Virus record (IMG/VR): IMGVR_UViG_3300024257_000004
Strand: one strand, 5' to 3'
Source: a virus
Taxonomy: Duplodnaviria > Heunggongvirae > Uroviricota > Caudoviricetes > Schitoviridae
DNA length: 64,000 nt
Positions 7,530 through 12,603 of the stretch are shown here, in pieces. Within the stretch, counting starts at the first letter, position 1. Each line of letters begins with the position of its first letter. The position numbers and the translations under genes are program-made. A model generated the notes under the pieces. The model was not told the DNA's origin and made no database searches. It saw only the letters and a list, made by a program, of their open reading frames with translations.

Positions 7530-9833
7530 CTAAAATTCCCATCTCGCCACCTGTTCAATGATAGATATTCTGAATCGTTCATCGTCCATAGGATCATACC
7601 AGTAATCGTTGATTTCGTGCATAAGGGCGACCACTGATTCCTTAGTTGCCCCAAGGTCTTTAGCGTGCTTAGCGGCTCTGATTAACGCTCTAGAACAATT
7701 TGCTTCACACTCAAATGCATATGAGAATGTAGTAAGCTTGTTCTGTAACTGCGCGTCCATTTGAGACTTATTAAGTTTCTTAGGTTGTGAATTAGTTCCA
7801 GATAAAGCGTCAGATGAAGCTAATATAAACTCTTTGGCAGCTAATGGTTCTGCATCTAGTACTGATAGTACATTACGGTCTGCATAACTAAAATATATCT
7901 GCCCTTTAGGTAAGTTATCCACTTCAAGTTGCAGTTTATTTGCTATTGCTTGAATAAAGTATTTCCATTGTATGTCAGATACACTAACTACAGTATCTAG
8001 TTGCAGTAGTACTCTAAATTTAAATGGGTTATCTGGGTCCGACGTACGTGCTATATGGTGGTTAATGTCTTCAAGTAAGTAGTGAGCTTCCTCATCAGTA
8101 ATATCTGACGTATCGACATCAAGTACTACCCAAGAACACCCTCCTACGATATTATTACGACCTCTAACTCTGCCGCTAGGATTAGGATGCTTTTTACGAT
8201 CAATATCTGCACCGTTAAGTACATCCTTCAGCTCGAATGGTGTATAAGCAAAGTCATTAGTTAATAAATCAGCTAATTCTTCGAAAGAGGTTGGACCATA
8301 GTCATACCCGTGTACAGCAGTAGCAGCTACAAAAGCTTTAGCTTTCTTGATACGTTCATAGTCAGCATTTTCAGAAACTAGTTTCGCTACATTAGAATTA
8401 TCTACTTCTATATAGGATACGCCCATTTCCGTAGCAACTACCTGCTTTTCATAGCAGATGGCTGAGTTTTCTTTACAGATAGTGTATACGCCTTCTGGGT
8501 CATACGATGAAGCTAAATGTACTAATTCACACATATTAGTTGTTGAATCACCTTTAGGTGGTATGTATCCTAGCTTACGTAAGTCATGAAGAGTTATCAT
8601 AAACTTGTTATCAATAGCATGTAATTGCATATATTGAACAAATAGTTCATATGCTTCTTTCGATAATTGTTCTTCGAATGATAATAAATCCGGAGATAAA
8701 GTCTCTATAGTATTGATTGCATCGACATAATGAGATTCATTAATAGTTTCTGATTGATCAAGAATTGCGTAAGTACCTGATAATTTGAGGGCTAACCACT
8801 GCTTGTGTTTACGTGCTAGCTTACTTATAGGATAATGTGCATCTAAGTCTTCAGATTCTCTGGAGTTGTATTCAAGGTATATATCAAATAGGTCTTGAGC
8901 GCATGATTCCAGTGGTAATGTTTCCGGGATAGTATCAATATTAGTAACTAATTGATGAACATAGTCACCCACCAGTTCTTGAGCATGCGATACTCTTTCA
9001 CGTTCAGCTTGTTTATGTTTACGTACTTCTGTGATTGATTTGAAATTCTTCATCGGCACTTTATCTGGAGAGAAACTAAATAATGACCTACGTGCTAACT
9101 GTGTACTAAATACTGTACGAAATTTAGCCTTTATATTATTATCATAAAGAATAGCATCCTCTGAGCCAAATAGTAGAGCGTTAATAGGTAAAGCATTTAC
9201 TTCCCCGGTTTGATTCTCTGATGACTTAACAATCTTTGAAGGTATTTTACCTAAGTCATAACCAACTGCTATAGTTTTAATAATATCTATAAGTAGTGGG
9301 TTTGATTGTAGGTCAGTACCAATTTCAGACGTATTAACTGAAGCAGCTCCAATTGCCCCTTCTTCTAGGTGAACAAAATGTTGAACTAGTCCTTCTACTG
9401 TACCAAGACCAGCTTGTAGCGCTCTAGGTTTAGTATAGTAACTAATCCATTGATCAGTATTAGCTCCGTCAGCTTTAGCAGCTTCTTCGGCTTTTTGTAC
9501 AGCAAATTGTTCTCTGTAGTCTTCTATTATGTTATAAGATTGTTTAAATGCTTTTCTAATCATATTCATAGAACTATCTTTTGCTTGACCTGATCTTGCT
9601 AGTGCAAATGTAATAGCGTTACATGGTACTACAGTTCCGTCATGCAGTGTAATAGATCTACGTAGATGTGAAATCAGAGTAATTAACTCTGATAATGCTA
9701 TAGATAATCGTAAGTTATACGGAGCGTCTTCTGGGAGAATATCCACTGTTGCAGATACTACTTCGTGTGTAAGTGGTTTGAATGCCCCTTTACTCTCTAA
9801 GTGAGCACGTAGCATGTCTTTAGTTGTGCACAT
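7530..9833 (-). CDS. Putative replication protein with primase-polymerase (AEP)-like motif
   Basis: 767 aa with no Walker A. The C-terminal region has WVVLDVDTSD (hhhDhD), typical of AEP primase motif I. It sits between the ATPase and DNA polymerase genes. Confidence 0.4.
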   Translation of the reverse strand: MCTTKDMLRAHLESKGAFKPLTHEVVSATVDILPEDAPYNLRLSIALSELITLISHLRRSITLHDGTVVPCNAITFALARSGQAKDSSMNMIRKAFKQSYNIIEDYREQFAVQKAEEAAKADGANTDQWISYYTKPRALQAGLGTVEGLVQHFVHLEEGAIGAASVNTSEIGTDLQSNPLLIDIIKTIAVGYDLGKIPSKIVKSSENQTGEVNALPINALLFGSEDAILYDNNIKAKFRTVFSTQLARRSLFSFSPDKVPMKNFKSITEVRKHKQAERERVSHAQELVGDYVHQLVTNIDTIPETLPLESCAQDLFDIYLEYNSRESEDLDAHYPISKLARKHKQWLALKLSGTYAILDQSETINESHYVDAINTIETLSPDLLSFEEQLSKEAYELFVQYMQLHAIDNKFMITLHDLRKLGYIPPKGDSTTNMCELVHLASSYDPEGVYTICKENSAICYEKQVVATEMGVSYIEVDNSNVAKLVSENADYERIKKAKAFVAATAVHGYDYGPTSFEELADLLTNDFAYTPFELKDVLNGADIDRKKHPNPSGRVRGRNNIVGGCSWVVLDVDTSDITDEEAHYLLEDINHHIARTSDPDNPFKFRVLLQLDTVVSVSDIQWKYFIQAIANKLQLEVDNLPKGQIYFSYADRNVLSVLDAEPLAAKEFILASSDALSGTNSQPKKLNKSQMDAQLQNKLTTFSYAFECEANCSRALIRAAKHAKDLGATKESVVALMHEINDYWYDPMDDERFRISIIEQVARWEF

Positions 9834-10599
9834 TATAATTCCTTCATTATTTGTTTAATTTCCTCCGTAGAGCAGTTATTTGGTAGTTCAGTTTGACTAG
9901 CCCAGTCAGGGCCTATTTCTAGGTTAGCTTCGTTATGTACTATTTGATTATCCATAAAATCCTTCACCATAATTTCAACTAAGTTGTTATTTAGCCATTT
10001 AATTAAGGCTGGATCAGCTTTGATTATTCCATAAATTGAATCATAAATAGTCGACGTGACGTATAAGTCCGATTCAGGTATTTTAGCTTCTGCTTGTCTA
10101 TGGTGTAACTCATTAATTGAAATAGCAGTTAGTATTGACCAAAATTGTGAATTAGCGTTAAATAGCGTTCTTGAGTCTTTGTCTGGTGTATCAGAATAAA
10201 GCCTAAGACCTAATCCTATGTGAGTGTACCCAGTTTGTTTAACTTTATCGATTACCTTATTACGGAATGCTGATATATTTGGATACATCTTGTTATGGTA
10301 GTTATCAAAGATTTCCTGAGTAATAGTACCACCTTTATCAACATCAGGGAAGCCCCCATAAGCCAATTTGAAGGTTACAGGTTTAGACTCTTGTCTAAGT
10401 GCTCCGGCTTCTTCCGATGTCTTAGTAAGCTTTTTGAATAGTCTAGAAGCTTCCTTGTTATCAGTAAATTCTCCAACCATGTCTGCTATCCTATCCGGGT
10501 AGTAGTATGTAGCGGCTAATGAGTGGCCATCTAAGCCTTCAGAGAATACTGCGATTTTATTGTTATCCCCAGAAAGATTAGCTATAACTCTATCTTCTA
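9833..10599 (-). CDS. DNA polymerase I family (PolA), exon 2 (motif A second half, motif B, motif C)
   Basis: Carries motif B (KPVTFKLAYGG) and continues motif A (EDRVIANLSGD). It is in frame with exon 1 after removal of the intron, giving the spliced junction ...DYAAL|EDRVIANLSGD, which matches the PolA motif A [16 protein letters not shown]. Confidence 0.75.
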
Positions 10600-11540: not shown

Positions 11541-12603
11541 ACGCTGCATAATCTATCGAGAATACTAGGTACCCTGGAGGAGCTGTAAAGCACTTTTTAA
11601 TAGGCTTAGCGTATATTGACCCAGTTGAAGGCATATTAAGCATATTCGGCCTCTGTGACGTATAACGAGCTGATTTAGCTCCTAGTAGTTTGTAATCTCC
11701 GTAGAGTTTACCGTCTACTGAATATTTATAAAATGCTTCGATGAAGTTATTCTTTACAATTGCTCCGAATGAGAAATCGATAAAGGCTTGAGTTATTTCC
11801 TCAAGAACTGGATCCTTAGTTTCATGGTTAATTCGCTCTATTTGATCACGAGGCCATGATGGGTCACCTGTAGTTTTAGATGTTGTTTCAGATTCAAGAC
11901 CTAACCAAGCAAATAGTTCTGCTTTTTGTTGTGGTGATGATGGTAAAAATTCAGGTAGAAGTTTATCCATAGACACTGTTTTGATCTGCTCACGGTATCG
12001 TTGGTTAATTGAGTCTGCTTTAACTTTGGCTCTAGCTAATTGATTCATAGCTTCGATAGCTATTGGATCCGCTTCTGGCACAGTTTTATCCATTACTGAT
12101 TGCAGTTCAGGGCATATCTGTAAGTAGGCTTTAACTAATTTAGCTGTCCATTTAGGAATACCTAAATCTAGCATGTCCGTTGGCGGAGTTAGTTTAAATT
12201 TTGGGTAGCGTTTACGAAATTCTTCCATGTAGAAAGACCTATGAATAGTGTTACCGTTCTTGAATGTCTTCATAAAGTACTGTACATTACGTAGTTTAGA
12301 GTTGATTTCTTTTAAGTACTCATCTCGTACTTTAGGATATTTCTGCGCATGAAAGTCGATTATGATTTGGTTATTAGCTATAATTTCCTTTACACCAGAT
12401 AGTACCTCATCAAGAGTAGATTCCAATTCAGCTACACGTTCCATGTCTATAGGTAAGCCATTTGACATGATTTTGTTCGTATCTTCAATAAGTGGTTTTG
12501 CTATGTTTTCATAGAAGTAGTCTAGTTGTAATTCAGATGGGTCATATACTGAAGGGGCCGGTTGTGGTAGACACATCCAAGGCCGGTTCTGTTGGTTGCT
12601 CAT
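11541..12603 (-). CDS. DNA polymerase I family (PolA), exon 1: polymerase domain N-terminal part up to motif A
   Basis: 356-aa ORF ending ...FSIDYAAL(T). Motif A begins with DYAAL. It has its own RBS (AGGAG-N7-ATG at 12603). Confidence 0.75.

Follow-up and report, generated by a model that had tools for sequence, protein, structure and literature searches.

A 64,000-nucleotide (nt) stretch of viral DNA (IMG/VR record IMGVR_UViG_3300024257_000004; the whole of it is called the window here) very probably carries, at 11540..10600 on the minus strand, a mobile phage-type group I intron of subgroup IA2 within motif A of a family A DNA polymerase gene. An initial annotation, made from the letters alone, had proposed that motif A is split by a group I intron bearing an HNH homing endonuclease. 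Its observations are confirmed and its interpretation is supported by the analysis described here, which adds the location of the guide sequence and of the endonuclease open reading frame (ORF), as well as a wider family of introns. Coordinates of the features are collected in Table 1.

The polymerase gene appears as two ORFs. The upstream one (12603..11533, minus strand) terminates with ...FSIDYAALT and a stop (...PPGYLVFSIDYAALT), and the downstream one (10615..9833, minus strand) opens with a GTG codon followed by MLNINVEDRVIANLSGDNNK... and contains ...NVEDRVIANLSGD. Exon 1 ends ...GCAGCGT at 11541, its final U opening the Leu codon of DYAAL; exon 2 begins at 10599 with TAGAAGATAGAG. Joining 11541 to 10599 gives a product of 609 amino acids (aa) that reads DYAAL-EDRVIANLSGD, with a predicted ligated RNA GCGU^UAGAAGAU (here and below, ^ marks a splice or insertion point) and a wider junction ...GATTATGCAGCGT^TAGAAGATAGAGTT.... 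The intron starts UAACAU... (TAACATAAG) and ends ...AAACG (...ATATAAACG). The ORF ends, the 11541/10599 junction, the length of 941 nt and the terminal G had all been given in the initial annotation, and all hold when checked against the ORF list, by script and by direct reading.

Restoration of motif A by joining the exons, also claimed at the outset, is borne out by protein comparisons. Taken separately, the halves match Pfam DNA_pol_A with 42.8 bits (profile positions 22–160) and 28.2 bits (191–281), whereas the joined product gives one continuous match of 84.9 bits. Aligned to Taq Pol I (PDB sequences), the joined product runs without a gap across the junction, in the segment lvfsiDYAALEDRVIANLSGDnnkiavfseglDgH. 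Family A polymerase motif A is contiguous, then, once the exons are ligated. The insertion lies four residues past the catalytic Asp and directly before the steric-gate Glu, and it interrupts the Leu codon after one base. If these residues are, as we assume, D705 and E710 in E. coli Pol I numbering, the intron sits between residues 709 and 710.

We scanned the whole window with Rfam at the gathering thresholds, and the sole match other than tRNAs was Intron_gpI (RF00028; curated threshold 50 bits). This covariance-model search had been suggested as a check, and the match falls on the predicted strand: 99.8 bits, E 1.2e-24, 10943..10722 (minus strand), covering model positions 1–253 of 253. In the Rfam alignment P2, P3, P4, P5, P6, P8 and P9 are recognizable, and extra sequence is inserted where P7.1/P7.2 belong. 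The splice sites follow the group I rules, with U at −1 (11541) and omega G at 10600, and a terminal G is present in 9/9 homologous introns. A UAA codon at intron nt 6–8 terminates ribosomes arriving from exon 1. The last 344 nt of the intron have 47% G+C, versus 35% in the HNH ORF and 36% in the window, and include P6 with a UUCG loop and P9 with a GAAA loop, in line with the GC-rich 3′ part and the UUCG- and GNRA-capped helices first described. Phage polymerase introns of subgroup IA2 are recognized by P7.1 and P7.2 joined by GUA (PMC3428280). In the window, P7.1-GUA-P7.2 stands between P7 and P3′, and P9.1/P9.2 extensions are present as well; we therefore place the intron in IA2.

Relatives of the HNH protein led to homologous introns. 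In five metagenomic lineages (L025, L026/28, L029, L031 and L032), where this protein is 64–79% identical to that of the window, and in Pseudoalteromonas phage pYD6-A (46%), the HNH gene lies between two polymerase halves and is followed by a ribozyme (Rfam 88–100 bits). Common to these homologs are an exon 1 ending in GCGU, an intron starting with U(A/G)AC, UAGCGCC before P2, and a 3′ junction G^UAGA(A/G)GA; seven homologous introns have the same junctions and the same guide sequence. We aligned these seven, starting at the guide sequence and ending at the 3′ splice site (alignment A1), and folded the alignment with RNAalifold, which returned P2, P3, P4, P5, P6, P7.1, P7.2, P8, P9 and P9.2; the P7 pseudoknot was added. 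Across 13 helices, 96.7% of cells are paired, and 42/64 pairs have changed on both sides. None of 500 shuffles attained the observed values, and sliding the registers by 1–3 columns reduced pairing to 31–43%, with at most 13 such pairs. These data back the P3–P9 core, including the P3/P7 pseudoknot, by covariation, and the secondary structure expected of a group I intron could be modelled from P1 to P9.2.

Uninterrupted alleles provide an independent view of the junction. The nearest annotated phages, Alteromonas phages AD45-P1 to -P4, encode the polymerase (45% identity) in a single uninterrupted piece, as do 12 IMG/VR contigs (46–50% identity), which show no Rfam match. Motif A is contiguous, as DY[ASN]AL-EDRVIA, in 13/13 intron-less relatives (AD45-P1 plus the 12 contigs) and identical to the predicted ligation; comparison with such homologs had been named as a further check. 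The corresponding DNA target, GCNC^TAGAAGA, is conserved in all 13 (for example ...GATTACAGTGCTCTAGAAGATAGAGTT..., or ...GACTACAGTGCTCTAGAAGATAGAGTTATT... in the allele of contig L008). The exon ends differ between the two kinds of allele: GCGT^TA is found in 8/8 intron-containing alleles with the UAGCGC guide versus 0/13 intron-less ones (mostly GCN-C^TA), counts that come from related sequences and carry no formal probability. This is the pattern expected from selection for P1 pairing or from co-conversion during homing. A Megablast search of 50,697 phage genomes with the whole locus gave no match, so the phage itself is absent from that collection.

The partner of the 5′ splice site in P1 proved to lie beyond the HNH gene. 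No sequence in the 60-nt leader can pair with the end of exon 1, and the sole UAGCGC is 3′ of the ORF, whose stop codon UAG (10925..10923) doubles as the 5′ half of the guide sequence. Cofolding also pairs GUUA with UAAC and UUAAGGU with ACCUUAA, giving an extended P1 that closes a loop around the entire HNH gene. Extended-P1 helices are built from unrelated sequences in 6/7 lineages (e.g. GUAAUAGAUAGU/ACUAUCUAUUAC in pYD6-A), and Vibrio phage JA-1, with exon UCGU and guide UAGCGA, shows a compensatory change in P1. Sequence and covariation show the HNH ORF to lie in the loop of this extended P1. Because the last codons and the stop of the ORF constitute the P1 3′ strand, a ribosome finishing the ORF and the splice-site helix should exclude each other; translation of the HNH gene and formation of P1 would then be mutually exclusive. 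Literature searches for phage introns described as carrying an ORF in their P1 loop yielded nothing specific.

The 185-aa ORF, which had been assigned to the HNH family and placed within the intron, matches HNH_3 (PF13392) with 46.6 bits and E 2.7e-12 (Pfam cut-off 24.8), upholding that assignment. Its sole PDB match is 1U3E, I-HmuI of phage SPO1 (E 8e-8), and the alignment sets I-HmuI H75, N87 and N96, which from the I-HmuI structure work we take to be catalytic, opposite H93, N105 and N114. As in I-HmuI, the last of these positions is Asn rather than His, which points to a nicking enzyme; the product is probably a nicking endonuclease. Relatives of the protein number 1125 at E<1e-10. At least 14 contigs of up to 115 kb, drawn from several metagenomes, encode an identical protein in the same gene order. 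No second HNH gene of this family was found elsewhere in the window. A promoter-like site occupies the intron leader, and a −10-like TATA(A/C)T recurs across the intron leaders of relatives, which suggests an internal promoter for the HNH ORF. In a contig with an N4-like polymerase (L016, ~2090..2125), a perfect TTGACA-17-TATAAT stands just upstream of an HNH ORF located in the P6 loop, parallel to the leader of the window.

Table 1. Features of the interrupted polymerase locus, in window coordinates
Feature	Position	Strand	Basis
Exon 1, family A DNA polymerase, 355 codons	11541..12603	-	ORF list, Pfam DNA_pol_A, junction arithmetic
Predicted group I intron, IA2-type, 941 nt	10600..11540	-	Rfam RF00028; boundaries from frame restoration and homologs
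P1 5′ strand, GCGU^UA	11539..11544	-	spans 5′ splice site, U11541 in U-G wobble; cofold
UAA stop in exon 1 frame	11533..11535	-	intron nt 6–8; read from sequence
Promoter-like site GTTACA-17-TATAAT	11504..11532	-	consensus scan, 10/12 matches; intron leader, upstream of HNH ORF
Extended P1 5′ strand (GUUA ... UUAAGGU)	11519..11532	-	cofold, −19 kcal/mol
Shine-Dalgarno AAGGA before HNH ORF	11490..11486	-	
HNH homing-endonuclease gene, 185 aa, I-HmuI-like	10923..11480	-	Pfam HNH_3, I-HmuI similarity
Extended P1 3′ strand (ACCUUAA U UAAC)	10926..10937	-	within final ORF codons; cofold
Internal guide sequence UAGCGC, P1 3′ strand	10920..10925	-	directly 5′ of P2; invariant UAGCGCC in 7 homologous introns
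P2 hairpin CUGUACGC-AGUAAU-GUGUACAG	10898..10919	-	alifold; 7/8 pairs compensatory
Catalytic core	10722..10893	-	Rfam alignment, RNAalifold, pair counts
P3	10893-10888 with 10775-10770	-	
P4	10883-10878 with 10850-10845	-	
P5	10873-10854	-	
P6, UUCG loop	10844-10822	-	
P7 pseudoknot	10816-10812 with 10748-10744	-	
P7.1 (UCCCU-UUGC-AGGGA)	10811-10798	-	compensatory changes
P7.2 (CACCC-AAGU-GGGUG)	10794-10781	-	compensatory changes; GUA linker to P7.1
P8	10769-10755	-	
P9, GAAA loop	10739-10722	-	
P9.1 long hairpin	10635..10719	-	gap in relatives' alignment; fold z = −4.5 jointly with P9.2
P9.2 hairpin (CACAGC-CUAACGA-GCUGUG)	10610..10634	-	6/7 pairs compensatory; fold
Exon 2, polymerase, 254 codons plus stop	9833..10599	-	begins UA GAA GAU; ORF list, Pfam, Taq alignment

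Several points weigh against the reading of a mobile, splicing intron. P1 is invariant among the closest relatives, and its covariation consequently depends on JA-1 and on the extended helix. P10 is weak, with at most 3 bp (UAG with CUA). The 609-aa polymerase presupposes a spliced mRNA; that splicing occurs, how efficiently, and at which exact position the exons are ligated are deductions from sequence. For the endonuclease, the match to I-HmuI_NUMOD-like (PF22083; 22.2 bits, E 1e-4) falls under the Pfam cut-off of 27, with several close HNH relatives carrying a precomputed match to this family, and the promoter-like site amounts to a match to the consensus, of a kind not enriched in the region. 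Finally, an 8-mer within P9.1, UAACGCUG (10651..10658, minus strand), is the perfect complement of CAGCGU^UA (11546..11539), and in isolation its duplex with the 5′ splice site is predicted at −21.7 kcal/mol versus −15.8 kcal/mol for P1. This 8-mer could compete with P1, or its complementarity might be coincidental (a chance of a few percent). We rejected the 8-mer as an alternative guide: the partner of U(−1) would be A instead of G, the 8-mer is located 3′ of the core and buried in the P9.1 stem, and no relative has it.

A rival reading takes the element for a decayed, non-splicing relic, which would make either the polymerase copy a pseudogene or the contig a defective phage. In its favour, the 8-mer could mispair with the 5′ splice site, and P9.1 is ~85 nt longer than in six relatives, all of which lack the expansion that harbours the 8-mer. 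The expansion nonetheless folds into a clean hairpin, and phage group I introns such as those of T4 nrdD/sunY can accommodate peripheral insertions in P9.1. All core helices, the U-G pair, omega G and the P7 helix of the guanosine site are intact, with an Rfam score equal to that of relatives. The reading frames of the two exons and of the HNH gene are open, and the same sequence is found on at least 14 contigs of up to 115 kb from independent samples. We consider a relic improbable.

Less probable still is a truly split gene, with a free-standing HNH gene between two halves that are translated independently and assemble as finished polypeptides. Such layouts exist in related polymerases: in the N4-like Escherichia phage Pollock, the gene is split ~15 codons downstream of motif A, and an HNH ORF (L002, 2111..2671) overlaps both polymerase halves, leaving no room for a ribozyme and giving no Rfam match. 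Pollock seems to have either a genuinely split polymerase or an unrecognized element; its HNH protein is 27–32% identical to the HNH family of the window. Between the halves in the window, in contrast, sits a complete ribozyme with covariation-backed helices. Exon 2 starts without an ATG or a Shine-Dalgarno sequence, the only GTG (10615) being within the 3′ end of the intron, and the break falls inside one motif, with the catalytic Asp on one side and the steric-gate Glu on the other. The splice sites follow the group I rules exactly. As for an intein or other protein-level element, inteins are frequent in phage replication genes, and the JA-1 terminase contains one (PMC3670811), but the reading frames refute this idea: the insert is not open in frame, the exon 1 frame stopping at 11535..11533 and the HNH ORF having its own frame and start, and a Pfam scan found no intein domain, while the RNA model fits.

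The group I intron of the window shares its insertion site with elements in N4-like phages. In pYD6-A (NC_020849), insertion as GCGU^U...G^UAGAAGAU restores DYSAL-ED, the guide is UAGCGCC, and the order is 5′ splice site, ORF, core (88 bits). The polymerase of pYD6-A, however, is N4-like (Schitoviridae), whereas that of the window is AD45-like; moreover, the pYD6-A element has a wholly different extended-P1 sequence, a 45-aa C-terminal extension of the HNH protein and no long P9.1. The pYD6-A coding sequence is annotated as a two-piece join around the HNH gene; our literature searches found no paper describing the pYD6-A intron or any motif A intron. The HNH genes of the Vibrio cholerae phages JA-1 and VCO139 have been suggested to be possibly 'carried on an intron' (PMC3670811). 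In these phages the same Leu codon is interrupted in the same phase, UCGU^UA...G^UAGAGGAU, and the HNH protein is 44–47% identical to that of the window. The JA-1 ribozyme is recognizable as that of the window, sharing the P2 loop AGUAAU, the P6 flanks GCGAAGC...GAACGUG and P7.1-GUA-P7.2.

The position of the ORF differs, however. P1 of JA-1 is a compact local hairpin, and the HNH gene lies in the terminal loop of P6 (GCGAAGC[...ORF...]GAACGUG, where the window has GCGAAGCCUCUUCGGAGGAACGUG), splitting the ribozyme. The same arrangement, a short local P1 with the HNH gene in the P6 terminal loop, is seen in L016, an IMG/VR contig; both JA-1 (L018) and L016 are N4-like, and the splice point of L016 is one base further 3′ (GCCCU^...G^CGAAGAU). 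Because the ORF splits the ribozyme, Rfam scores for JA-1 and L016 are below threshold or absent: both were missed at the gathering threshold and seen only by a permissive scan together with reading of the sequence. Their HNH proteins are 44–49% identical to that of the window and 58% to one another. Overall, the HNH proteins form three clades ~45–50% apart, and ORF position follows clade. One tentative interpretation, which we regard as possible though doubtful, is that a single intron family occupies one motif A homing site in AD45-like and N4-like polymerases, with the HNH gene in the P1 or the P6 loop recording how an endonuclease gene entered, or moved inside, an intron already adapted to its site; the P1 form would then act as a built-in switch between spread of the element and repair of the host gene.

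A near-repeat of the start of exon 2 was observed at the 3′ end of some of these introns. The final 13 intron nt of pYD6-A (L019, ~4418..4430), JA-1 (L018, ~4162..4174) and L029 (~3505..3517) read (U/C)GAAGAUAAUG, resembling UAGA(A/G)GAU... and in frame with it, and ORF callers thereby add a spurious '(L)EDNV' to exon 2; the counterpart in the window is UUGAAUAUAAACG. We rejected '(L)EDNV' as exon sequence in all three, as only the downstream G^UAGA(A/G)GA agrees with both splice-site rules and with the 12-residue ED...DP spacing. The repeat might serve as a structural element (P9.0/P10) or be left over from the target site.

Known IA2-type introns in phage family A polymerases resemble the element in the window in type and endonuclease, not in location. 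Those of SPO1, SP82, Bastille, Pf-WMP3 and phage K (I-KsaIII) encode HNH (nicking) endonucleases, among them I-HmuI, I-HmuII, I-BasI and I-PfoP3I; I-HmuI is the only relative of the window ORF with a solved structure. Listed sites, in Pol I numbering, are 674 (SPO1, SP82, Bastille, Pf-WMP3), 676 (phiL7) and 881 (PhiI, W31), and the Pf-WMP3 intron has its ORF in P6a-P7 (PMC3428280). The SPO1-type site at 674 (RLSSSxP^N) is ~40 residues upstream of motif A; we checked it directly in Pf-WMP3 (RLSSSKP^NIQQIP), and the I-KsaIII intron of the phage K type sits at RLSSSNP^ and leaves motif A intact. Group I introns also interrupt catalytic motifs of phage family A polymerases in the T7-like PhiI and W31, phiL7 and Ralstonia phage BOESR1, but at other sites: 881 (motif C) in PhiI and W31, 676 in phiL7, and motif B (KTFIYGFL^YGAG) in BOESR1, whose ORF-less intron has a core ~71% identical to that of the window over 200 nt. 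The motif A site (709/710) is distinct from the characterized sites 674, 676 and 881. It is not unrecorded, given the pYD6-A join annotation and the guess of the JA-1 authors. The element is of a known selfish kind, at an insertion site so far without experimental characterization, and the layout with the ORF in the P1 loop is uncommon.

Some relatives show further breaks in the polymerase gene. In L031 (~3400..4630), exon 2 is broken again after ...FLDGLDG, and a DUF723 ORF precedes the C-terminal piece; in L025 (1605..2174) and L032 (1647..2216), an extra NUMOD4/HNH ORF lies upstream of the motif A exon. The polymerase genes of these three relatives have been invaded more than once.

Neighbouring genes in the window include a 3′-5′ exonuclease domain (PF01612) encoded by a separate 242-aa ORF (12542..13270, minus strand) in another frame, with a 62-nt overlap with the polymerase ORF. 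The layout recurs in AD45-P1, where a 223-aa ORF and the polymerase start share 20 nt, and in L029 a 150-aa ORF lies between the two genes. In this clade the exonuclease is apparently a protein separate from the polymerase, with a frameshift fusion as a conceivable alternative. A 767-aa ORF (7530..9833, minus strand) begins at the polymerase stop codon, is kept downstream of the polymerase in metagenomic copies and has a weak DUF3987 match (19.7 bits); its product may be a primase/helicase-like replication protein. Rfam also reports tRNA genes, seven clustered at 59734..60447 (plus strand) and two at 33459..33660 (minus strand), a complement typical of a large virulent phage (~100–115 kb).

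Group I chemistry suggests how the element would work. In the folded pre-mRNA, the exon 1 end GCGU would pair with the guide UAGCGC to form P1 with its U-G wobble; an external guanosine would attack after U11541, and the released exon 1 would attack after the terminal G (10600), yielding ligated exons GCGU^UAGAAGAU and an mRNA for the complete 609-aa polymerase. In a mixed infection, the target of the 185-aa HNH enzyme would be intron-less polymerase alleles, cut near GCNC^TAGAAGA, presumably by nicking, and repair off the intron-containing allele would copy the intron in (homing). Occupation of this one site in unrelated polymerase lineages is an indirect sign of such homing. Intron endonucleases can serve as weapons between co-infecting phages (PMC11620839). 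Given that the target is conserved in 13 intron-less relatives, the element in the window could have such a role.

For annotation, these findings mean that two 'polymerase fragments' and a 'hypothetical protein' become one predicted 609-aa polymerase and an intron-encoded endonuclease, and the same correction is due in JA-1-type Vibrio phages and in many metagenomic contigs. The P1-loop ORF layout would offer a simple system in which to study how translation is separated from splicing. Motif A would be the fourth or fifth intron hot spot in phage family A polymerases, where one intron/HNH family appears to have crossed between unrelated marine phage lineages.

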